Assembly: GCA_023898585.1 (NCBI GenBank)
Contig: CP060229.1
Span: 139,388 to 203,387, forward strand
Length of the DNA: 64,000 bases
Direction: 5' to 3'
Origin: Candidatus Nomurabacteria bacterium
GTDB lineage: Bacteria; Patescibacteriota; Minisyncoccia; Phycocordibacterales; UBA918
The notes under the pieces were generated by a model. It saw nothing but the letters and a program-made list of their open reading frames with translations, did no database searches and was not told where the DNA came from. Position 1 is the stretch's first letter; each line of letters begins with the position of its first letter. Shown piece by piece: positions 6,899-43,610 of the stretch. The translations under genes were made by a program, and so were the position numbers.

Positions 6899-8404
6899 AT
6901 GAGCAACAACAATCAACAATTGCTCGATTACATTAAAGATCAATTAAGGGCGGGTTTTCCCGTAGAATCCATCAAGAGGTTATTACTAGAGAACGATTGG
7001 GCGGAAGACGTAGTCACGGAAGCTTTTTCCGAGTTGGGCATAGAAGTGGCAGTTGGTAATGAACACGAGAATTCATTAGATGGAACATTTTCCGTGAATG
7101 AAAAAATTCGCGAGAAAAACTTTGCCCGAGAAAACCTAACCATGGACAAAATAATCGAGAAGTTCATACCGATTGCGGGTGCGATTTTTCTTATTGTTGG
7201 TTTTGGATACTTAATCTACGCGAACGCGTGGGTTCATTTACCAATGGAAATAAGGATCGGCTTAGGTTTCTTCTTTAGCGTCGTAATCATCGGTGGTTCA
7301 TTCTCCTTTTCCGAAAAGATGCGATATTTCGCCGATATCGGAATCGGTTCCGGAGTCCTGTTGCTCTACGCCACTTTGATTTTTGGCTCAAGAACAACCG
7401 AGCTGGCGACTGATTTTGTAATCCCGGAAATAGTGACACTTTACACAGCGGTAATGTTCACTGTCGCCATCTCTTATTTTGCTTCAAAAAGAAATTCGAA
7501 AGTTATATTGATGCTAGGAATGATTGGTGCCTACATCACACCTTTCGTGATCGGACAAAATGATGTCTGGGTAAATAACGTTTCGTTTAATGCTTATTTG
7601 ATATATTTCTTTGCGGTGAATGTTTCCGTTTTCTTGATGGGAAGGGAAATTTCAGTACGTGACATCATACCTTTAAACATAATCGGTTTGTTTATAGGTG
7701 TTTCAACTCTATGGGGACTTGCCGCCTCAGAAGGCATTAATGCGACTAGGGCAGATAACTTCTTCACCAGTGAGTTGGTAACAGCGATATTATTCTTGGC
7801 ACTGGTGGTATTCTCCATCTGGAGCATTCTACTTTCCGCTAAAAGATTCAGTGAGAAAGACGACGGTTATTTGTCTCTCGGTTATTTGGCGCCGATTATC
7901 TGGTTTGCCTACAACGTAGGCAACCTGGATTCCGTCAATGACGTGACGGTTGGAATTCTATATGCCGTCATCGCCATTTCCTGTTTTGTGGGGTGGCACG
8001 TCTTGCTTGGTACCCAAACCAGATTCCAACACACTGCCTTGTATGCCGCCGGTCTACTCTCCGCCTTTCTGGCTGTTTTTGCCTTTTTCGAAGAATTCGA
8101 TATCTATACCAGCATGCTAATTGCTTACTCCAGCCTTATTTTCGGCGTCCTGCATATCGTCGACTCCGGAAAATCAGAGCGTTATATCAGCTACATCATA
8201 GTTTCATTAGCCGGATCAATTCTCTCCATTCAGCACATACTGGAAGCCAACGTACAGTACGAAACATTCCTAATCGTAGTCTCACTCTTGCCAGCCATGA
8301 TTGGCTGGGTACAAAGGCCACGGGTACGGTCAGTCTCCTTGAACACAACAAACTCAAGAAGGAAAACGAACAACTCAAACAAATCATCGGTGACCTCACC
8401 ATAA
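6899..8404 (+). CDS. Polytopic membrane protein (about 12 TM helices, short cytoplasmic N-terminal domain). Its 3' end is fused to and disrupted by an IS3 fragment.
   Basis: 501-aa ORF. The last roughly 35 codons (VQRPRVRSVSLNTTNSRRK...) are read from IS3 orfA sequence in another frame, so the native C-terminus is lost. Confidence 0.5.
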   Translation: MSNNNQQLLDYIKDQLRAGFPVESIKRLLLENDWAEDVVTEAFSELGIEVAVGNEHENSLDGTFSVNEKIREKNFARENLTMDKIIEKFIPIAGAIFLIVGFGYLIYANAWVHLPMEIRIGLGFFFSVVIIGGSFSFSEKMRYFADIGIGSGVLLLYATLIFGSRTTELATDFVIPEIVTLYTAVMFTVAISYFASKRNSKVILMLGMIGAYITPFVIGQNDVWVNNVSFNAYLIYFFAVNVSVFLMGREISVRDIIPLNIIGLFIGVSTLWGLAASEGINATRADNFFTSELVTAILFLALVVFSIWSILLSAKRFSEKDDGYLSLGYLAPIIWFAYNVGNLDSVNDVTVGILYAVIAISCFVGWHVLLGTQTRFQHTALYAAGLLSAFLAVFAFFEEFDIYTSMLIAYSSLIFGVLHIVDSGKSERYISYIIVSLAGSILSIQHILEANVQYETFLIVVSLLPAMIGWVQRPRVRSVSLNTTNSRRKTNNSNKSSVTSP

Positions 8405-8995
8405 AAATGTCCATTGAGGCTAAAAAGGGGCTCTCCAAGGGATGGTGATCGGTTATTCACGTACGCATCACTATTATCACCATAAACAACCTCAAAAGGA
8501 TTGGCACACCAAGCAACTGATTGAGGCTGTGTTACGTGAGCACCCAGGCTATGGCCACAAGCGCTTGGCCACACACCTCAAGATCAACAAGAAACGAGTG
8601 CTGAGAGTTATGAAGTTGTTTGGTATTAAACCATACCGGAGAACTACTCCTAAAGTGTTTAAAAGCCTAAAGGTAGTGTGTTTCCCAACTATTTAATGAG
8701 TGAGGAACCACGAGGGCCAGGTGATATATATGCCTCAGACTTCACCTATCTTAAATATCGAGGAAAGTGGTTGTATGTGGCTACAGTACTCGATACGTAC
8801 ACTAGAGATAGTTGGTGTATCGATATTGACAACACATCAGACACAGCTCGTCATTAACGCTTTGGCTTCAGCAGTGCTCCATCGAGCTCCTCCACGGATT
8901 ATTCATTCCGATCAAGGGAGTGAGTACTGCTCAAAAGACTACACTGCCTTAACCCAAAAGCTTGGTATCAAACAGTCCATGAGTGCCCCCCGGTC
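8295..8995 (+). mobile_element. Decayed internal fragment of the IS3-family element (3' part of orfA plus a frameshifted, truncated orfB). Both ends are missing.
   Basis: The encoded WLGTKATGTVSLLEHNKLKKENEQLKQIIGDLTIKMSIEAKKGLSKGW and MVIGYSRTHHYYHHKQPQKDWHTKQ... are near-identical to the intact copy at 17424-18549. The orfB region has several frame breaks and stops after ...SMSAP. Confidence 0.75.
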
Positions 8996-16600: not shown

Positions 16601-17423
16601 TATTTTGTATTTTTCGGGCTAAAGAAACAATCTAGGACCTAAAACACCAAAACCACGGCTCTGTATAGCCGTGGTTTTATGTTTATCTAGCTCGCATGGT
16701 TAATAAACGAGTTAGATGTCCCTATTGTTTATCATTACAAACTAAAAAGAAAGGTAAACAAAGTGGTAGACAGCGCTATGGTTGCAACGATTGTGGTAAA
16801 CGATTTCAAACTAAGCAGAGAGAAACAGGGTTGGTTAATAAATTATGGGAAGAGTATACACATCAAAAACAAACGCTGACCGAACTGTCTAACAAATACA
16901 AGAAGAGTCACGTCTGGGTACGTACACGATTAGATCAAGTTAAAACCTCAATACCAAACATACAACCACAAAAGACGGTTATCGTAGCTGACACCACCTT
17001 CTGGGGACGACACTACGGTGTCTGTGTCTTTAGATCATGGAACTTACGAAGAAACATTTGGTGGGGTGAGGTTGAGACTGAGAAAGTGTCTCACTATCAC
17101 TACGCTCGTAAATTATTAGAAGAACGTGGTTGGACATTCATCGCTGCCGTAGTGGACGGAAGGCGTGGATTAGCAACGGTTTTTAAGGATATACCAGTAC
17201 AAATCTGTCAGTTTCATCAACTGAAGACCGTGACCAAGTACTTAACTAGAAAGCCAAAGACTGAAGCTGGTAAAGAACTGCGAAAACTGGCTTTAACACT
17301 CACGAAAACAAACGAAGAAGACTTTGCTAAAGCTCTAACTATTTGGGAGGAGAAGTATCATAATTTCTATACTGAGAAAACGTACGTTACCTGTACTAAC
17401 CATTGGTACTACACACACAAGAA
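16601..17423 (+). mobile_element. Zinc-ribbon DDE IS element (IS1595/IS1-like) copy A, 3'-truncated by the nested IS3 insertion
   Basis: Identical to copy B (42570-43610) from the left end through ...TCTNHWYYTHKN. It then abuts the IS3 terminal IR at 17424. Confidence 0.7.
16696..17423 (+). pseudogene. Transposase of IS copy A (truncated after about 242 codons)
   Basis: N-terminal CPYC...CNDCGKRF zinc ribbon. The sequence diverges from copy B at residue about 243, where IS3 begins. Confidence 0.7.
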
Positions 17424-17440
17424 TGGAAGGTACCCCAAAA

Positions 17441-18217
17441 TTAAGACACCTTTTGCAAGTCTTTTAATAATACCTCATGTTGGTCTCTAAACAACTGTGG
17501 TGGTTGCTTTAGAGCGGAGTGGATACGTTTTTGATTGTAATAATTAATAGTCTGATAAATATTAGCCACTAACTCACCGAGAGTATCAAACCGGTTTGGG
17601 TCACCTAAGTCCAATTTGAACCCTTTATAGAAACTCTCTTGGTAACCATTCTCCCAGGGACAACCGGGGGCACTCATGGATTGCTTGATACCAAGTGATT
17701 GTACTAGGTTGGTATAGTCTTGACTGGTGTACTCACTCCCTTGATCAGAGTGAATGATACGAGGTGGTGGGCGGTGAAGCACGGCACTCGCTAAAGCATT
17801 TAATACCAGTTGAGTATTATGGGTGGTTAAGACTGACACTCCAACTATCTCTCTGGTATAGACATCTAGTACCGTTGCTACGTATAACCATCTATCTTGA
17901 TACTTAAGATGAGTGAAATCGGAAACGTAAATGTCACCAGGTCCAACTGGAGATTCACTCATCAGGTAGTTGGGAAACACACTACCTTTAGGCTTTCTAT
18001 AGACTTTTTTGGCTGTTCTTCGATAAGGTTTGATGTCAAAGAGTTTCATCACCCGTAGCACCTTCTTCTTGTTCATCTTGAGGTGTTGCGATAACCGTTT
18101 GTGTCCGTACCCTGGATGCTCACGAAGAGCCATCTCAATCTGTTGTTTGGTGTGCCAATCCTTTTGAGGTTGTTTATGGTGATAATAGTGATGCGTACGT
18201 GAATAACCGATCACCAT
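17441..18217 (-). CDS. IS3-family transposase OrfB (DDE/rve integrase core)
   Basis: 258 aa with DDE region ...YVSDFTHL...IIHSDQGSEYTS...WENGYQESFYKGFK. Confidence 0.8.
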   Translation of the reverse strand: MVIGYSRTHHYYHHKQPQKDWHTKQQIEMALREHPGYGHKRLSQHLKMNKKKVLRVMKLFDIKPYRRTAKKVYRKPKGSVFPNYLMSESPVGPGDIYVSDFTHLKYQDRWLYVATVLDVYTREIVGVSVLTTHNTQLVLNALASAVLHRPPPRIIHSDQGSEYTSQDYTNLVQSLGIKQSMSAPGCPWENGYQESFYKGFKLDLGDPNRFDTLGELVANIYQTINYYNQKRIHSALKQPPQLFRDQHEVLLKDLQKVS

Positions 18218-18486
18218 CCCTTGGAGAGCCCCTTTTTAGCCTCAATGGACATTTTTATGGTGAGGTCACCGATGATTTGTTTGAGTTGTTCGTTTTCTTT
18301 CTTCACCTTGTTGTGTTCAAGAAGACTCACGGTACCTGTGGCTTTGGTGCCGAGCCAATCATAGATGGTTCGACTACTGATACCGTATTGCTTAGCCGTA
18401 TCACTGACACTCAAGCCTTCGTGTTTGATTTTATTGATAACTTCGGCTTTTATCTCAGCTGAGATCTTGTATCCTTTCTTGGACAT
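18211..18486 (-). CDS. IS3-family transposase OrfA (HTH)
   Basis: 91 aa: MSKKGYKISAEIKAEVINKIKHEGLSVSDTAKQYGISSRTIYDW..., a helix-turn-helix. Confidence 0.8.
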   Translation of the reverse strand: MSKKGYKISAEIKAEVINKIKHEGLSVSDTAKQYGISSRTIYDWLGTKATGTVSLLEHNKVKKENEQLKQIIGDLTIKMSIEAKKGLSKGW

Positions 18487-18639
18487 ATTGCTTGTATTGT
18501 TTAAGTGATAATACTTGCAAAAGTTGTCTTAAGAAAGGGGTACCTTTCAACAAGCCGCTTTTTTGTCGGACTCAGAGGATTATCTAAAGATAAAACAGTT
18601 TATCCAAAAAATCGGAACGAACCCCACGGTTCGTGACAA

Positions 18640-18968
18640 ATCCGCCCGCTTCGCCGCGCCCGCCCCGTCCGAATTTGTCTCGAAACGACGGCGTTTTTTG
18701 CTTTCCTCGCCCCGCCGCGTTCGGTCGTGTAGCGACCTCACGGAACGGGAAGTTTCAATTTGCGGTGCTTTTTGAACGAAGTTCGAACGCTCTACGAACA
18801 AAATCCGCAAGAGTTTGACTAATAACCCGCTCAGCCGCGCCCTCGGCTCCACTCCGTTCCGCCGACCGAAACAAACTCTTTTCTTTTCCGCTTTTAACAA
18901 GAAAAAATGGGGGGCGAAAAAAATGAAAAAGCAAAGAAAAGAGATTTGTTTCGGGAGTTCGCGAGGTG
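18640..18968. repeat. GC-rich repeat arm R1 (inverted relative to R2 at 22080-22440)
   Basis: 18750-18968 is about 97% identical to the reverse complement of 22080-22300. Further upstream the similarity weakens. No convincing ORF. Confidence 0.6.
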
Positions 18969-19349
18969 CTGCAAAGTAGCTCACTAAACCAGTTTATTGC
19001 TTACGCAATACCGTTCGCTACTTCTCCGCACCTCGCTCACTCGGGCGCCACCTTCAAGCGTTTGTGGTAATGTAACGTCCGCTCACACCTGCAACACCTC
19101 GCACGCTTTGCTCGCATAAGATGCTCGCGTGGGCTGCTCTGGTGTTGCGGGTGTTCGCTTAGTGGCTTCGATTTGAGTTCGTGGTGCCCACGTACATGCA
19201 TGTTTGACTATGTTTGCTCTTGGTCTGTTATCGCTGACGTCTGTATATTTTTACGAATACCTCGACCAAATCGAAACGTCTCTGTCGGAATAGGATTCTT
19301 CGGCTTTGCGTGGTACGCAAACAAAAATCATCACCGACGTTGTATTCGT

Positions 19350-20198
19350 TTAACCAGCTATGCGACACTGTGTGGCCACAGTACAATATCGCACTGATCT
19401 GAGAAAATTCATCCATCTCCATGAATGTTGCAGGCACATTGTATTCGCCTCCGATTGCTTTCTTGGGAATTGTAGGAACAGGTTTGTAAAACCACCCTGT
19501 AACTTTTCTTTGCCGGGAACTTTCACAAGTACGTCAGGCCCTTGCCCAAACACGGCTCGTTTGAAAAGCATATTCGGATCAGCAAAATGTTGTATCGCGC
19601 TACCGTTAATTGCGACGATTAAGCAGTCCTTGTCCTTGACACCGCTGTGCTCTGAGTCTTTCAGATATTGTTTGAACTTCTCATACTTTGTCCCTATCGC
19701 GTTGGTTATTCTGAGTGCGCGCGGACGATGCGTATCTTCAATATTTCCGCCAAAGGAATAGATGACACCTGACTCCATATGTGGATGTGGTTCTACGGGG
19801 TCTACTGTTCCCCAGATCACAAGTAATCGCTTCAATCCAAATATTTTTGCGCTCGGTAGTGTTATACAAAAATCTGGTCCATAATCCCAAGCCTTTTCTT
19901 TGAGTATAAAGCCCTTGTCGAGAAGCGTCGCTGCAAGATGAAATTCCCAAACACGAGCTTGATGCTCTTGTTCTAGCTTGAAGCGATCAAGAAAATCACT
20001 ATCAAGATATTTATGCACCTTGGGCCAGCGATCCTCATACCATTTTCGTAGATCTTCCCAGTACACGGCAGTCTGTACGTAGGTGTGCGAGTATTCAGCG
20101 TGCTGTTGAAATGCCGCATCAAGCTCTTCCTGGCTTGTGACCGGATCAGTCACAATATCTTTCGGAAACAAGGGCGATAGTTGTTTTAACTGTTTCAT
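19350..20198 (-). CDS. Hypothetical 282-aa protein (island cargo)
   Basis: A long ORF of intermediate GC. It contains a YGPDFCI segment, possibly a PD-(D/E)xK-like PD motif, but I cannot assign a family. Confidence 0.35.
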   Translation of the reverse strand: MKQLKQLSPLFPKDIVTDPVTSQEELDAAFQQHAEYSHTYVQTAVYWEDLRKWYEDRWPKVHKYLDSDFLDRFKLEQEHQARVWEFHLAATLLDKGFILKEKAWDYGPDFCITLPSAKIFGLKRLLVIWGTVDPVEPHPHMESGVIYSFGGNIEDTHRPRALRITNAIGTKYEKFKQYLKDSEHSGVKDKDCLIVAINGSAIQHFADPNMLFKRAVFGQGPDVLVKVPGKEKLQGGFTNLFLQFPRKQSEANTMCLQHSWRWMNFLRSVRYCTVATQCRIAG

Positions 20199-20620
20199 AT
20201 GCGCATTGTATCAATTTGTGTGACATTAGTCCTTATTTGAAGCCGTGTAGCAAAATCTTGGGCTTGACATATTGACAATATTGTGTATACTAGCATTAGT
20301 TTTCGGCATTTGTATGCCGAAATTTTTGAACCTTAACATAGAGGAGGAATTACGATTGAAAACGTAAGGCTAAAAGGCTTCGTTATTGGCTCTGACAGAG
20401 TCGGTGACGATACGGTTTGGAAGGTCCGAGTCAATGACAAGACCAATAAGCTTCATTGGAAAAAGTTTGAAGTTGCTTCCGTTCACGGAGGTATTCAGCT
20501 TGCCAAGGGGCTTGAGGTTGAGTTTTTGCTCGGCAACTTCCTGAAAGACGGACATCCTGTCCAAAGGCCGTGGATGTCGCGCTTCTGTGACTCCACACAA
20601 CAGACACAAAGAGGTAACTC

Positions 20621-22023
20621 ATGTTAAATATTCCCTTCTTGTCGGTCGGACTCATTCTGGTCGGCATCCTGCTCGTTTTGTCATCATTCTGGCGATCCTC
20701 TTCCGCAAGGTCGTGAGCACCAATATGGTGCATATCGTCCAGAGTAGCCATAAGACCACACCCTACGGCACCGGCAACAACAGTGGCAACGTCTATTACC
20801 GTTGGCCGAGCTGGATTCCGAGGTTTGGGGTCACTGTCATCGAACTTCCTGTGTCCAACTTCGATCGCAGCCTCAAGGGCTACGAAGCGTATGACAAGGA
20901 CCGGGTACCGTTCATGGTCGACGTTACGGCGTTCTTCCGGATTGCCGATACGGCGCGTGCTGCACAGCGTGTAGCGAGTATGGGAGACCTCGACGAGCAA
21001 TTGGACCTGATCGTCCAAGGCGCCGTCCGCAAGGTGCTCGCCTCTGACGTGATCGACAAGATCATGCTCGAGCGCGCACAGTTTGGCGACCTCTTCACTA
21101 ACGAGGTTACCGAACAACTCGCCGAGTGGGGTGTGGAACCAGTCAAGGCAATGGAGCTCATGGACATCCGTGACAGCCACGACAGCCACGTAATTTCCAA
21201 CATCATGGCGAAGAAGAAGTCTCACATCGAGATGGAAAGCCGGAAGGAAGTCGCGTCGAACAAACGTGAGGCCGAAATGGCGGAGATAACCGCGCAACGT
21301 GAAGTCGACATCCAACGCCAGCAGGCCGAACAGGCTGTCGGTGAACGGACGGCCGAGAAGGAAAAGGTCGTCGGCATCGCGCAGCAGCAGGCGTCGCAGG
21401 AGGTGAAGACCGAAGAAGCCAACACCAAAGCCAAGGAAATGGCAGTCGTCAAAGTCGGTCAGGTGCAACAAGCCGAGATCGATCGCGACGCGGCCATTGT
21501 CGCTGCTGACCAGCAGCGCGAGGTTGCTATCCGTGAAGCGGATGGTAAGCTCGAAGCTGCCAAGCGTGAAGCCGAGGGTGTGCGTGTGAACGGTGTCGCT
21601 AAAGGTGAGGCCGAACAGGCAATCCTCATGGCGCCGGTCAATGCCCAGATCGCTCTGGCGGAGAAGATCGCTTCGTTGCCCGAGTACCAGGAGTACCTGC
21701 GGGCGATCGAGGCGATCGGAGCCTACCGGACGGTCGGCAGCGAGCAGGCGAAAGCACTGCAGTCGGCCGACGTCAAGGTCATCTCCAACGCCGGTAAGCC
21801 TGGCGAAGGGATGACCAACGTCATGGACCTATTCACTTCCAAGGGTGGCACCACCTGGCCTCGGCGGTCGAAGCGTTCGCACAGAGCCCGCTCGGCAAGT
21901 CCATCATGGGCAAGCTGGCCAACTCGACTTCAGACAAGGTGGTGGACACTCCGGAGAAGCCGCAACCAACTGAAGAAGAGCAGACGCAGCTCGACGAAGA
22001 GAAGTAAGCCTTCTGTCCTCTAA
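20621..22023 (+). pseudogene. Flotillin/SPFH (band-7, YqiK-like) protein. High-GC foreign gene with a -1 frame break after the N-terminal TM helix.
   Basis: The ATG at 20621 gives MLNIPFLSVGLILVGILLVL (TM helix) and hits a stop after 31 codons. The body resumes in another frame at ...ILAILFRKVVSTNMVHIV... through the SPFH domain and a long EA-rich coiled coil (REAEMAEITAQREVDIQRQQAEQA...). The break falls at a T4 run near 20680. Confidence 0.7.
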
Positions 22024-22079
22024 CCTAAACCAAGTCCCCGAGTACTCGCAAGAGTGCTCAGGGCTTCTTTATATGAGCT

Positions 22080-22440
22080 AGCCAATTTTGCAGCACCTCG
22101 CGAACTCCCGAAACAAATCTCTTTTCTTTGCTTTTTCATTTTTCGCCCCCCATTTTTTCTTGTTAAAAGCGGAAAAGAAAAGAGTTTGTTTCGGTCGGCG
22201 AAACGGAGTGGAGCCGAGGGCGCAACTGAGCGGGTTATTAGTCAAACTCTTGCGGATTTTGTTCGTAGAGCGTTCGAACTTCGTTCAAAAGCACCGCACT
22301 TTAGGACAATCAACGGAAACAGAACCCGAGGGCCGCCGCCGCGCAAGCGGCGGCGCCGTGCCATGTGGCGGCAAAGCAAAGGGCGAACGGCGCGGCACAG
22401 AGAGCGTGCGCACGGAAATGGACGGGTTCGTCGTGCTTGT
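22080..22440. repeat. GC-rich repeat arm R2
   Basis: Reverse complement of R1. Its inner part (22300-22440) is also repeated, again inverted, at 24040-24180 inside the recombinase 3' end. Confidence 0.6.
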
Positions 22441-22602
22441 TGTGAATATTTAAGGTTCACAACCACGCACGCGTTTTGTTGCACAAAACAACCGATCTTT
22501 TGTCTGCTCTATTTGAGCGGCGTGAAGCGATTTTGAGTATTTGGATTGTCCGAAAATTTTGCTCTGTTTATTCTGTGTATGATAGAATGTGAGTGTACCC
22601 AA

Positions 22603-22679
22603 CCAAATCGAGAAGGTCTTTTTAATGGCCGTCTTTGGGCAATTCGAGGTCTTCTCGGGTTGGGTACACCAAGGACGGC
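22603..22679. promoter_or_regulatory. Imperfect inverted repeat immediately upstream of the serine recombinase gene. Candidate recombination (att/res-like) site or operator.
   Basis: GTGTACCCAACCAAATCGAGAAGGTC ... GAGGTCTTCTCGGGTTGGGTACAC flank a 26-bp AT-rich core. Confidence 0.3.
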
Positions 22680-22687
22680 TATTATAG

Positions 22688-24212
22688 TTTCCATATGAAA
22701 GATACTCCGCAAAATTTTATCTCTACGCTCGCAAGTCCACGGACGAAGCGCAGAGGCAAGTGCTAAGCATAGAGGCGCAGCTCCATGAATTGAGAGAGTT
22801 TGCACGAAAAGAGAATTTGCATATCGTCCGTGAGTTTGTTGAGAGCAAGACGGCGAAAGAACCAGGACGAGAAGTTTTCAATGAGATGCTTGCGAGCGTC
22901 GAGAACGGCGATGTTGAAGGTATCGTAGCGTGGCACGCGGATAGGTTGGCGCGCAATAGTGTAGATGGCGGCAAGATTATTTATCTGCTGGATGTTGGTA
23001 AGTTGAAGTACTTGAAGTTTCCAACCCTGTGGTTTGAAAATACACCGCAAGGTAAGTTCATGCTCAACATCGCCTTCGGCCAATCCAAATACTACGTTGA
23101 TAACCTTTCGGAGAACATCAGGAGGGTATTCGCCAGAAGCTCCGCAATGGCGTATGGCCAGGATATGCACCTATCGGATATTTGAATGACAAAACAAATC
23201 GCACTATTGTCCCCGATACAGACAAGGCAACCCTCATCCGCAAAGCATTTGAGCTTTATGCAACTGGCGAATACCCCTTATTGAAACTCCGAAAGGTTAT
23301 CAACGAATCTGGCTTGGTTGGGAAGCGGGATAAACTCCTTTCAATTTCAAACTATCAGTACCTACTCAAGAATCCAATCTACTACGGAGCTATCAGATAT
23401 GGTGGTGAACTCTATGACGGAGTCCATGAACCGATTATCACTAAGAAACTTTTGATGCGGTACAGAGCATCATGGGAAGCAAGTCGCGCACTACTCGCGC
23501 ACCCAAACTGAAGCCGTACAGTTACCGCGGCGTGTTCCGTTGTGGCGAGTGTGATTGCATGATAACCACCGAGACTCAGAAAGGACACAACTACCTTCGC
23601 TGCACCAAACGCCGCGGAGTATGTACCCAACCCTATGTGCGCGAGGAAGCAATAGCCGAGCAAGTACGAGAAGAAGTCCAAAAAGTTTCTTTGCCGTCCG
23701 CGTGGGTGGATGCGTGCGTGCAAATTTTAGAAAAAGAACGCACGCACCACCAACACGCGGAACGGTCGTCCGTTCAAAAACTCGAAAGTGAGATAACAAC
23801 GATCGAGAAGAAACTCGACGCTTTGCTTGATCTCCAACTTGATGGTTCCATTACACACACCGAGTACACAAACAAAAAGCAAGTGCTCCTAAATCGCAAG
23901 ACCGACCTCAAAGAGCAAATCGCCGTTTTTGAGCGAACGAGTGATAATCGGTTCGAACCTTTGACCCGCTTCCTTAAATCGCTCAACCAAGCCGGAAAAA
24001 TCACTTCACGAGGAAATCTCGAAGAAAATCGAGATTTCCTCAAAAAGATCGGTTCGAACCCGTCCATTTCCGCGCGCACGCTGTGCGTGCCGCGCCGTTC
24101 GCCCTTTGCTTTGGCCGCCACATGGCACGCCGCCGCTTGCGCGGCGGCGGCCTCGGGTTCTGTTTCCGTTGATTGTCCTAAAGTGCGGAGAGTATGGGAT
24201 TTGAACCCATGA
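22688..24212 (+). pseudogene. Large serine recombinase (resolvase catalytic domain, recombinase domain, zinc ribbon and coiled coil) with at least two homopolymer frameshifts and no canonical start codon
   Basis: Catalytic YLYARKSTDEAQRQVLSIEAQ (Ser nucleophile), then GIRQKLRNGVWPGYAPIGYLNDKTNRTIV in the -1 frame after a G3 run near 23125, then ...IITKKL/SIMGSKSRTTRAPKLKPYSYRGVFRCGECDCMITTE (zinc ribbon) after a T4 run near 23440. Confidence 0.75.
24040..24180. repeat. GC-rich repeat R3 (third, partial copy of the R2 inner segment, R1 orientation)
   Basis: The reverse complement of 24040-24180 matches 22300-22440 (ggacaatcaacggaaacagaacccgag...gcaaagggcgaacggcgcggcac...). Confidence 0.55.
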
Positions 24213-24272
24213 AGGGGGTTAGCCCTTACCTCGTTAGCAGTGAGGCGCTTTCGACCACTCAGCCAACTCTCC
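24186..24272 (-). tRNA. tRNA-Ser (anticodon GCU), class II with long variable arm
   Basis: Reverse-strand sequence is GGAGAGTTGGCTGAGTGGTCGAAAGCGCCTCACTGCTAACGAGGTAAGGGCTAACCCCCTTCATGGGTTCAAATCCCATACTCTCCG. Acceptor stem of 7 bp, T-loop TTCAAAT, anticodon loop CTGCTAA. Confidence 0.85.
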
Positions 24273-24356
24273 GTCTTTCTTCGAGTTGGCTTCGGGTCGA
24301 ACGAGTTCGTCCTCCTCCTTTCAGTCGGTTGAAAAGCAAATCAATTTTGCTTTTCA

Positions 24357-24374
24357 ACCACTCAGCCAACTCTC
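24357..24374 (-). repeat. 18-nt duplicate of the 5' end of tRNA-Ser (GAGAGTTGGCTGAGTGGT), followed on the same strand by a perfect 14-bp hairpin
   Basis: Direct repeat of 24255-24272. The adjacent hairpin is GGTTGAAAAGCAAA-ATTGA-TTTGCTTTTCAACC (24324-24356). Confidence 0.5.
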
Positions 24375-24590
24375 TAATTCAAATTCATTTACAACGCTCA
24401 GATTTTTGCGAGCGTTTGACTCTGTTTCCTCCTTCGCTACTGTGCCAGCTAGGATAACATAGTTTCTGTGAGGAAAAAAGATTTTGATATCATTTACCGA
24501 CACTCAAAAGTACAAGCTTTTTATTCTGCAACTATACCCTATTTCTGTTAGAGTAGTGAAGTTCAATATCGGTAATCAACCCGAATTGAA

Positions 24591-40922: not shown

Positions 40923-41416
40923 TAGGGCTGGGGATGCTAGGCATCGACGGTTAGTCGTGTCGGTTGTGTGCAGTGTCGAAATTGGTAATCAATTCGTTAA
41001 AAGGTTCCAACTTGTACATGCAAAGAAAGCTGTACCAAGTCCTTACGCTCGCGCGTTTGGATTCAGTCCCGCCTTCGCGTAAACATACGCCAGCCGGATT
41101 GACGCTCGAAAGTTAAACGTCTCATACGACTTTTCGGGTGGAATAGACACGAGACTGTGAAAGCCTTTGTCGTTGTCGTAGGTTTTCAAGATTCTAACAA
41201 CTCGAGTAATTAGTGTTTTGTTCATTCTTTAACTAATTACTCCAAACCAAAGAATGTACTATGCACTGTAGACCCACAATCACACCCTAATTCGGACGCG
41301 GATTCGATTTCCGCCATCTCCACATTAACGAACCTTATTCTGCATAAGCTTATTTGCGTGTTTTTGAGATAAGAGTGAAATGTTAGAACCTATAATATCT
41401 TTGTTATACTTGATAT

Positions 41417-42569: not shown

Positions 42570-43610
42570 ACGCATTTTCGGGCTAAAGAAACAATCTAGG
42601 ACCTAAAACACCAAAACCACGGCTCTGTATAGCCGTGGTTTTATGTTTATCTAGCTCGCATGGTTAATAAACGAGTTAGATGTCCCTATTGTTTATCATT
42701 ACAAACTAAAAAGAAAGGTAAACAAAGTGGTAGACAGCGCTATGGTTGCAACGATTGTGGTAAACGATTTCAAACTAAGCAGAGAGAAACAGGGTTGGTT
42801 AATAAATTATGGGAAGAGTATACACATCAAAAACAAACGCTGACCGAACTGTCTAACAAATACAAGAAGAGTCACGTCTGGGTACGTACACGATTAGATC
42901 AAGTTAAAACCTCAATACCAAACATACAACCACAAAAGACGGTTATCGTAGCTGACACCACCTTCTGGGGACGACACTACGGTGTCTGTGTCTTTAGATC
43001 ATGGAACTTACGAAGAAACATTTGGTGGGGTGAGGTTGAGACTGAGAAAGTGTCTCACTATCACTACGCTCGTAAATTATTAGAAGAACGTGGTTGGACA
43101 TTCATCGCTGCCGTAGTGGACGGAAGGCGTGGATTAGCAACGGTTTTTAAGGATATACCAGTACAAATCTGTCAGTTTCATCAACTGAAGACCGTGACCA
43201 AGTACTTAACTAGAAAGCCAAAGACTGAAGCTGGTAAAGAACTGCGAAAACTGGCTTTAACACTCACGAAAACAAACGAAGAAGACTTTGCTAAAGCTCT
43301 AACTATTTGGGAGGAGAAGTATCATAATTTCTATACTGAGAAAACGTACGTTACCTGTACTAACCATTGGTACTACACACACAAGAATGTACGTAGTGCC
43401 TATATGTCACTGAAACGAAACTTGCCTAATTTATTTACCTACCAAAAATATCCAGAGCTTAATATTCCTAACACCACCAATACTATTGATGGATACTTTG
43501 CGTCACTCAAAAAGAAAATCGCCCAACACCATGGACTGAGGAGAGACAGAAGGCTTAGGGTTATTTCTGAGCTACTAAATAGGTCCTAAAAAGTTTCTTT
43601 ACTCCGCATT
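42570..43610 (+). mobile_element. Zinc-ribbon DDE IS element (IS1595/IS1-like) copy B, apparently intact, with a putative 8-9-bp target duplication (cgcattttc)
   Basis: Imperfect terminal inverted repeats GGGCTAAAGAAACAATCTAGGACCTA and GAGTAAAGAAACTTTTTAGGACCTA (reverse complement), flanked by cgcattttc on both sides. Confidence 0.7.
42660..43589 (+). CDS. IS transposase (N-terminal CxxC...CxxC zinc ribbon plus DDE domain), 309 aa
   Basis: MVNKRVRCPYCLSLQ...YGCNDCGKRF, then IVADTTFWG...AAVVDGRRG...CQFH. Confidence 0.75.
   Translation: MVNKRVRCPYCLSLQTKKKGKQSGRQRYGCNDCGKRFQTKQRETGLVNKLWEEYTHQKQTLTELSNKYKKSHVWVRTRLDQVKTSIPNIQPQKTVIVADTTFWGRHYGVCVFRSWNLRRNIWWGEVETEKVSHYHYARKLLEERGWTFIAAVVDGRRGLATVFKDIPVQICQFHQLKTVTKYLTRKPKTEAGKELRKLALTLTKTNEEDFAKALTIWEEKYHNFYTEKTYVTCTNHWYYTHKNVRSAYMSLKRNLPNLFTYQKYPELNIPNTTNTIDGYFASLKKKIAQHHGLRRDRRLRVISELLNRS

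Follow-up and report, generated by a model that had tools for sequence, protein, structure and literature searches.

The DNA considered here, referred to as the window, is a 64,000-nt stretch of a Candidatus Nomurabacteria bacterium genome (contig CP060229.1, positions 139,388 to 203,387). It is highly probable that positions 18761-24188 of the window are an integrated 5.4-kb element of a very large family that relies on a large serine recombinase (LSR) and occupies the extreme 3' ends of tRNA genes. In this reading, three repeats mark the attachment (att) sites: R1 at the left end is attL-type, R3 at the right end is attR, and R2, located inside the element between its cargo and the integrase gene (int), is an inverted and complete attP. 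The core at which these sites cross over is located within the int reading frame, some 18 codons upstream of the natural stop codon.

The geometry of the repeats carries much of this argument. R1 (18761-18975) is the reverse complement of 22087-22298 (215 nt, 97.2% identity, E=5e-100), as seen both in a repeat search and in a blastn comparison of R2 with the window. The blastn comparison also aligns R3 (24055-24188) with the reverse complement of 22294-22430 (138 aligned positions, 93.5% identity, E=2e-53) and yields no other copies of the repeats within the 64-kb window. In a three-way alignment, the only sequence common to all three copies is a 5-nt core, TGCGG, at 18761-65 in R1, at 22294-98 (as CCGCA) in R2, and at 24184-88 in R3. 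To the right of the core, R1 is identical to the reverse complement of R2 (R2rc); to the left of it, R2rc is identical to R3. Furthermore, the boundary of R3 coincides exactly with the 3' end of tRNA-Ser(GCT). This arrangement of core and arms, with R3 ending at the tRNA gene, is the signature of attL, attP, and attR, in which R2 is the inverted attP with a complete P-core-P' structure. GC content is 0.68 in the P arm, 0.54 in R2, and 0.44 in the window as a whole. The original prediction, made from the letters of the window, had noted a near-perfect inverted R1/R2 pair and an arm that recurs, inverted, at the recombinase 3' end, and had suggested that the serine recombinase uses these repeats as its sites. 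All three observations hold: the earlier coordinates lie within about 10-15 nt of the boundaries given by the repeat search, R3 lies inside a reading frame ending at 24212, and the attL-type/attP/attR pattern at the tRNA identifies the sites. The principal features are as follows; handles beginning with L denote other contigs and loci used for comparison.

18761-18975, plus strand: R1, consisting of the core TGCGG (18761-18765) and the P' arm; an attL-type end, from the repeat geometry and a junction grammar that is the same in 17 relatives.
18766-18822, plus strand: displaced natural 3' end of int, 18 codons and a stop (CFLNEVRTLYEQNPQEFD); the peptide is kept in 18 of 18 delimited elements.
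22087-22430, minus strand: R2, a complete internal attP, inverted, and a silent copy of the int 3' end (tail, core, and natural extension); its parts are p' (22087-22293), the core CCGCA (22294-22298), and p (22299-22430).
22431-22694, plus strand: region upstream of int; in relatives, a hairpin-containing insert of about 33 nt sets the arm boundary here.
22695-24212, plus strand: int, the LSR gene, 506 aa (Pfam PF00239, PF07508, and PF13408); intact in L002 and L011-L013.
24055-24188, plus strand: R3, an attR consisting of the P arm (the last 45 int codons) and the core TGCGG (24184-24188).
24185-24272, minus strand: tRNA-Ser(GCT), the integration target, whose 3' end overlaps the core (ARAGORN; Rfam tRNA, 58 bits).

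The int product has the domains of an LSR. Its catalytic domain, with the serine nucleophile present (PF00239, E=4e-15), contains the motif YARKSTDE, which is invariant in family alignments, and is followed by a recombinase domain (PF07508, E=8e-11) and a zinc ribbon (PF13408, E=2e-7) with Cys motifs that are likewise invariant. Sequence matches of the integrase in the PDB cover the catalytic domain only (3g13, 3guv). An AlphaFold model has long helices at residues 338-418, which may form a coiled coil. In the window, however, int is split by three 1-nt homopolymer contractions (22710, 23123, and 23449) relative to the intact gene; the open reading frames (ORFs) at 22760-23185, 23182-23511, and 23472-24212 correspond to the Resolvase, Recombinase, and Zn_ribbon_recom domains of one LSR in three frames.

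These frameshifts, the only 93-97% identity of R2 to its partners in the window, and the presence of IS3- and IS256-family insertion sequence (IS) elements immediately to the left could be taken as signs of a relic in decay, of a composite transposon, or of an assembly artefact, in each case without a function today. This is extremely unlikely. The differences between the window and four independent short-read assemblies all fall within the island (18700-23450) and are nearly all 1-nt homopolymer contractions, while the host flanks are 100% identical to the short-read assemblies over 12 kb on the right and 7.7 kb on the left. One of the short-read contigs, L002, is 99.87% identical over 13.3 kb, has an intact 506-aa int, and terminates exactly at the outer edge of R2. 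Because the four short-read assemblies contain the intact 506-aa gene, the broken integrase of the window is probably an assembly artefact. The confinement of the contractions to the island, between identical flanks, suggests that uncorrected long reads were used to fill the island and that the natural element is intact. The cargo genes of the window (19350-20198 and 20587-22023) are probably frameshifted artefactually as well, and a pseudogene reading of the integrase was dropped in favour of homopolymer errors. All short-read contigs of the left flank stop at the IS256-family copy; inverted arms of 134-350 nt explain the short-read contig breaks at these loci. Moreover, the same architecture recurs in dozens of genomes, often with arms that are 100% identical, and an identical element is found beside another tRNA allele: in L011-L013, a 100%-identical integrase adjoins a different tRNA-Ser(GCT) allele. 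The element is thus intact and recently mobile in other samples, contrary to the dead relic that had been offered as an alternative. Nor is it the composite element that had also been suggested. A composite transposon, in which two copies of a transposase-encoding IS flank the cargo, was ruled out: the repeats contain no transposase, and the IS3- and IS256-family elements (16611-18549) are external to the island and have no sequence in common with the repeats.

Both arms of the att site contain protein-coding sequence. In family alignments the residues past ...KKIGSN are conserved, indicating that the P arm is the true 3' part of int. It encodes the last 45 int codons, and most family members end in ...WRRGRDSNP(R), which is the antisense translation of the T-arm and acceptor end of the tRNA. 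When the int frame of 18 delimited elements is followed across the core as in attP, it runs into a conserved peptide of 15-19 residues, CFL[DI][ED]VRTFFEQNP.. followed by a stop, and the stop falls 45-57 nt past the core in 18/18. For the window, this natural C-terminus is the 18-residue peptide CFLNEVRTLYEQNPQEFD encoded by the P' arm. The entropies at codon positions 1, 2, and 3 of the extension (0.95/0.56/1.13) argue for selection at the protein level. Since int extends from the P arm into the P' arm, crossover takes place inside int, and integration trades the last ~18 codons for codons read antisense through the tRNA gene. Consequently, the integrated form of the integrase ends in ...RRVWDLNP, and the attP form ends in ...RCFLNEVRTLYEQNPQEFD, which is conserved and helix-forming. 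AlphaFold models the natural extension as a short terminal helix with moderate confidence; docking of the C-terminal extension in the model was dropped, as the confidence was too low. In a census of 120 homologs, the tRNA-encoded tail was present in 71 and the attP-form or natural end in at least 19, and the natural-end integrases that were looked at are located at tandem junctions.

These results bear on what had been said of the coding content of the repeat. The claim that it lacks a convincing ORF does not stand, given that the P arm consists of int codons and that the P' arm encodes a conserved extension. The frame ending in ...FERSSNALRTKSARV that had been read in it does exist, but it is not the coding one: R2 of the window has lost 1 nt from a T run, a contraction that L002 and L011 do not have, and this loss opens the frame. 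The idea of two alternative recombinase 3' ends was correct: they are the antisense-tRNA end and the natural extension. The minus strand of R2 was also considered as a stand-alone small gene sharing the integrase tail, and hence a candidate recombination directionality factor (RDF). This was ruled out; upstream of the copy of the int 3' end there is no consistent start codon in relatives, and in many loci a stop lies at the arm boundary.

The layout is not peculiar to this genome. More than 7,600 database proteins belong to the integrase family at E<1e-10, with 586 confirmed matches among species-representative genomes, and 80 related loci were fetched from such genomes (Patescibacteria, Elusimicrobiota, Verrucomicrobiota, and others). 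An antisense tRNA gene is present at the int 3' end in 63 of 70 evaluable loci (Ser 38, Gln 13, Glu 6, His 2, Asp 2, Asn 2), and an inverted repeat flanks int in 43 of 49 (median 134 nt, median identity 98.6%, 14 at 100%). In about 20 of the 26 loci with long left flanks, there is also an outer, R1-like copy: the 140-350 nt adjoining the left arm on its outer side are repeated in inverted form 1.3-7.5 kb further left with an identity of 97-100%, and this copy begins exactly at the arm boundary. These counts indicate that the order R1 - cargo - R2 - int - R3 - tRNA is a conserved design. Each element consists of two modules, P'-cargo-p' and p-int-P, each bounded by its own inverted arms. The elements span 3.3-10.9 kb from core to core, and their cargos are unrelated. 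No cargo gene, whether for an RDF or for replication, is shared across the elements, and the minimal ones (3.3-3.9 kb) have no conserved accessory gene; transfer, capsid, and replication genes are absent from the elements' genes. In annotated plasmid and phage collections, the closest recombinases are only ~28% identical, neither close relatives nor circular forms are present in these collections, and IMG/VR is essentially without the family. This is a family of LSR elements at tRNA 3' ends centred on candidate-phyla-radiation bacteria and Elusimicrobiota.

The grammar of the junctions was read in the 18 delimited elements. At R1, a variable sequence ending in ..GCGG is followed by P'; in R2rc, P..TGGCGG is followed by P'; and in R3, P..TGGCGG is followed by AGAGGG..GGATTCGAACC, where TGGCGG is the antisense of the CCGCCA end of the tRNA. 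The att sites share a core of 4-8 nt (GCGG), and their half-sites are offset: the distance to the core is ~6 bp greater for the P' motif (G/A)T(T/C)CGAAC than for the T-loop ATTCGAAC of the tRNA half-site. An offset of this kind between the motifs of the quasi-symmetric attP and attB half-sites is known for LSRs. The half of the target that is not tRNA is not conserved, which accounts for the ability of the elements to form tandem stacks at the junction beside the tRNA, and complete tandem arrays are present in L043, L079, and L119. The left flank of R1 records such an event in the window. Here, 18571-18672 aligns locally to 24005-24100 (z=7.1 against shuffles), and a tblastn search with the int tail gives E=0.065. 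The 210-nt integrase remnant between the IS3-family element and R1 means that R1 is a tandem junction with an older element. Junctions of the same form, with an old P arm, the core, and a new P' arm, are also found in L043, L079, L030, and L119.

One related contig, L001 (GCA_020428745.1, 11138-14045), has the same host flank, and its tRNA-Ser(GCT) differs in the 3' half from about position 46, after which unrelated AT-rich small ORFs follow. It looks as though this 3' half has been replaced by a different integrative element and that the tRNA gene is a hotspot for several kinds of element. L001 was rejected as an empty site, being uninformative with its different tRNA 3' half and other AT-rich island.

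The cargo module occurs in both orientations in nature, as had been anticipated for the segment between R1 and R2. For the element in the window, the cargo is connected to R2 and int the other way round in L011. In two related elements, contigs with identical integrases carry the same restriction/defence cargo both ways (L109 vs. L110; L113/L117 vs. L114-L116/L118). The boundary of the flip in L113 is a repeat of only 56 nt and 89% identity, and so a k-mer assembler would not confuse it. In addition, P and P' arms have been reshuffled among elements, with breakpoints at or close to the core; in L028, the mosaic switches within 10 nt of it. In every hybrid element, R2 matches that element's own R1 and R3, as expected if recombination takes place between the internal attPs of tandem neighbours. 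A decayed tRNA-proximal element in L113 (11499-11693) has lost its int module and consists of an internally deleted inverted P', a 32-nt remnant of P, the core, and tRNA-Ser(CGA). The int module was also considered as an IS-like unit that excises alone; topology rules this out, because its two cores are inverted.

Inversion of the int module is another matter. The flipped state was sought in a metagenome scan with gapped patterns, and its signature was found in one contig, L120. Together with L035, this gives 2 flipped cases versus ~63-65 canonical ones. In L035 (9643-11565), the int module lies between two inverted, identical tRNA-Ser(GGA) genes, its arms come from different P lineages, and the outer flanks differ; a past chromosomal inversion, with the internal attP and another tRNA gene as its end points, may have left this pattern. 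These cases bear on the hypothesis that the repeats form a dedicated invertible switch, in which the recombinase flips its own R2-R3 segment and is full-length and active when facing R2, tRNA-tailed and quiescent when facing the tRNA. R2 does hold an intact natural 3' end without a start codon of its own, the arms flanking int are uniform (~134 nt) and often 100% identical, and a tRNA gene on the upstream arm exists in both L120 and L035. Furthermore, int would be antisense to read-through from the tRNA in the canonical state and sense when flipped. However, the counts mean that the flipped state is rare or transient, and the presence of a tRNA on each arm in L035 is more easily explained by a chromosomal rearrangement than by a flip alone. 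Ordinary integration, excision, and tandem stacking exchange the 3' end as well, and the hypothesis leaves unexplained the duplication of the P' arm for 140-350 nt beyond the stop. A dedicated switch is therefore doubtful. By the same token, the shufflon-like swapping of 3' ends in the original prediction is right in that alternative ends exist; there are only two, though, and they are exchanged mainly by integration into and excision from the tRNA gene, with inversion of int being rare.

Several points weigh against the main reading, that of a mobile LSR element with an internal attP. If the att copies were equivalent, int would face away from the tRNA in about half of the cases, which is far from what is seen. 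The free circular form was not recovered, and the circle with two att regions is inferred. The L011 contig was built by de Bruijn assembly with k=141 and runs through a repeat of 215 nt, and the flip of the window's element could therefore be a mis-join; in addition, homologous cargo genes common to distant elements are all in the same orientation. The tail of the integrase has an AlphaFold pLDDT of only ~60. The canonical LSR rules (phiC31, Bxb1, LI) forbid attP x attL, attP x attR, and attP x attP reactions, which makes inversion or module exchange catalysed by Int conjectural, and RecA-type recombination across arms of 134-350 nt could explain the flips.

In its distal, non-coding part, P' has a long hairpin whose loop is rich in G (18866-18954, strand unassigned, with a second copy at 22096-22203 in R2), identified by folding and by weak Rfam matches of hairpin type. 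No known RNA family in the repeats rises above noise in Rfam, in which there are just weak miRNA-like hairpin matches. The hairpin motif GGCGGGCAAAAA..TTTTTGCCCGCC has 32 matches in 1.26 Mb of loci, all within P' arms (those bearing it are in L025, L028, L030, L031, L054, L072, L079, L081, L082, L090, L113, and L119). The stem is GGGCGGGCAAAAA/TTTTTGCCCGCCC or an AT-rich equivalent, and the loop has two runs of G5-6; relative to the core, the loop is G-rich or C-rich, varying by element.

Such hairpins have led to another model, in which R2 is not a recombination substrate. Rather, as a copy of the int 3' end with a coding tail and hairpin terminators, it would act in cis as a regulator or insulator, either blocking read-through from the cargo into int or pairing as RNA with the int 3' end; flips would then be a neutral by-product of homologous recombination. 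This would account for hairpins that are conserved in distal P' and confined to P' arms, for the hairpin insert at the inner arm boundary, and for cargo flips that are symmetric and without regulatory effect, and it accords with the fact that canonical LSRs do not recombine attP with attL or attR. On the other hand, R2 is almost identical to both R1 and R3 as far as the core, which an insulating role would not require. In hybrids, R2 always fits the R1 and R3 of the same element, one mosaic breakpoint falls at the core, and the arrangements in L035 and L120 look as though the internal site had been used. This model is considered unlikely. A further proposal is that the inverted duplication serves establishment from single-stranded DNA, as in natural transformation: either strand, on entering, would carry the orientation-dependent hairpin signals and the att region, and a duplex attP would form again by pairing within the strand. 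The elements have no transfer, capsid, or replication genes and yet are spread across phyla, their P'-specific hairpins occur in both orientations owing to the repeat, and the family is missing from IMG/VR and the plasmid and phage collections. The argument, however, is a purely geometric one, and the proposal is very improbable.

Returning to R2 as an attP, the free form of the element would be a circle with two inverted att regions, which would integrate almost always via the att copy inside int. Within the integrated element, R2 would preserve both an intact integrase 3' end and a live attP, and it could provide a boundary for inverting cargo and integrase modules or exchanging them between tandem neighbours. 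Taken together, these ideas suggest a broader scheme that is offered as conjecture and is probably not correct in full. In this scheme, the elements are self-contained, RDF-free integrating cassettes in which each recombination rewrites the C-terminal helix of the integrase, element-encoded in the attP state and tRNA-encoded when integrated, and so determines in which direction, or how actively, the following reaction proceeds. With its inverted spare attP and 3' end, an integrated element would be able to regenerate full-length integrase and swap cargo and int modules with its tandem neighbours, giving a modular serine-integrase cassette system across Patescibacteria, Elusimicrobiota, and other phyla.

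Known systems share parts of this organization, and searches of the literature found no description of the architecture as a whole. LSR elements and prophages (phiC31, Bxb1, A118/LI, SPbeta) resemble it in their resolvase catalytic, recombinase, and zinc ribbon domains and long helices, in a short core identity without target duplication, in the same half-site motif at different distances from the core, and in having int beside attP. In those systems, the attP x attB reaction is unidirectional and is reversed by an RDF. Unlike them, the present family targets the extreme 3' end of a tRNA gene, has its core within the int ORF and a repeated att region of 280-480 nt, keeps a complete inverted attP inside, and includes minimal elements with no recognisable RDF gene.

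An att site within int is itself an established principle. Myxococcus phage Mx8 uses a tRNA-Asp gene as its target. In Mx8, attP lies within int, and integration makes a new int 3' end (intP to intX) and alters the properties of the enzyme (PMC6070905). Given this documented precedent, loss of the natural C-terminus upon integration probably alters the activity of the present integrase as well. The likeness is one of working principle only and not of family membership: Mx8 Int is a phage tyrosine recombinase, and no internal inverted attP or copy of the int 3' end has been described for Mx8. In the archaeal integrases of the SSV type, att is also within the integrase gene, and integration disrupts int (PMC5861418); these are viral tyrosine recombinases whose gene is split in two rather than re-tailed, without a spare copy. 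Thus, the att-in-int principle is already known from Mx8 and SSV, both with tyrosine recombinases, and neither has been described with a spare copy.

The closest published concept is that of the tycheposons of Prochlorococcus, small tRNA-targeting cargo elements that form tandem arrays and of which a minority encode large serine recombinases (10.1101/2020.12.28.424599). Most of them, however, use tyrosine recombinases, many have replication genes, and no internal inverted att or core embedded in int is described in that paper. The inferred circle, split by long inverted repeats and existing as flip isomers, resembles the yeast 2-micron plasmid (FLP/FRT) and chloroplast inverted repeats, and each 2-micron repeat likewise holds a recombination target. 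In contrast to the 2-micron plasmid, the present elements are integrative, lack a replication gene or origin, use a serine rather than a tyrosine recombinase, and have one segment that almost never flips.

Hin/Gin/Cin/Pin invertases and Rci shufflons also have a segment bounded by inverted repeats, a recombinase inside or beside it, and alternative protein C-termini, but in the present family it is the recombinase that receives the alternative ends. Neither of the two known types is integrative or linked to tRNA. The Hin/Gin/Cin/Pin enzymes are small serine invertases of ~190 aa with 26-bp sites and an enhancer, and both orientations of their segments are common; a segment of the Hin/Gin type was ruled out by the 506-aa LSR, the arms of 134-350 nt, and the scarcity of int flips (2 vs. 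~63-65). The Rci shufflon has a tyrosine recombinase, several 19-bp (sfx) sites, and many C-termini, and was ruled out by the serine enzyme, the two segments, the long arms, and the only two alternative 3' ends found here. Islands of the Islander type at tRNA genes have a tyrosine integrase and, at their far end, a duplicate of the displaced tRNA 3' fragment; this type was rejected on account of the serine enzyme and because nothing beyond the 5-nt core is common to R1, at the far end, and the tRNA junction.

For candidate-phyla-radiation bacteria and Elusimicrobiota, mobile elements and routes of gene transfer are poorly known. Elements of this family carry genes for restriction-modification or defence, metal resistance, and membrane proteins, and may be a main vehicle of accessory genes in these organisms. 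If the integrase C-terminus is indeed exchanged by the enzyme's own reaction, with a spare attP kept in reserve, this would be a novel form of control over directionality or activity, one that needs no dedicated directionality factor. In addition, compact integrases that read conserved tRNA 3' ends and accept any sequence in the other half-site are of possible interest for genome engineering.

The cargo of related elements is often restriction-modification- or defence-like (L109/L110, L113-L119, L014, L031). Domains observed include N6_N4 and Eco57I/MmeI-type methyltransferases, SNF2/DEAD helicases, PLD nuclease, AAA_13/AAA_15, and DUF262-like; one element carries a copper-resistance cargo with a P-type ATPase, HMA, and a cupredoxin. 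Exact look-ups of the ORF spanning R1 and of cargo protein P0121 gave no useful match. The remaining features of the element and its left edge are as follows.

18550-18760, plus strand: left flank of R1, a diverged remnant of a second integrase 3' end and P arm (P2), truncated at the left by the IS3-family element.
18976-22086, strand unassigned: invertible cargo segment X (Pfam, homologs; L011 joins the reverse complement of 18761-20426 to 22087-24214).
About 19205-20198, minus strand: conserved hypothetical cargo gene, 330 aa in L011 (homolog family).
20587-22023, plus strand: SPFH/Band-7 cargo gene (Pfam).

No second recombinase is present in the window, just the 3' remnant to the left of R1. 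The IS3-family element (17424-18549) has 40-nt terminal inverted repeats and two minus-strand genes, orfA (18211-18486) and orfB (17441-18217); a diverged copy (78%) lies at 8291-8990 on the opposite strand. It is abutted by a truncated copy of an IS256-family element (Zn-variant, 16611-17425) that is 100% identical to 42575-43389. On the other side of the element, just upstream of tRNA-Ser(GCT), there is a tRNA-like stretch (24275-24375, minus strand) associated with a 23-nt direct repeat of the tRNA-Ser 5' end (24249-24271 and 24352-24374). ARAGORN and Rfam called no tRNA at 24275-24375; the stretch may be a second tRNA-Ser gene in degenerate form, and in several relatives two tRNA-Ser genes lie side by side. 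Elsewhere in the window, a transfer-messenger RNA (tmRNA) gene at 40930-41323, the gene content, and the taxonomy of the relatives together point to an uncultured host with a small genome; the tmRNA encodes an unusual tag peptide, AKKAVPSPYARAFGFSPAFA.

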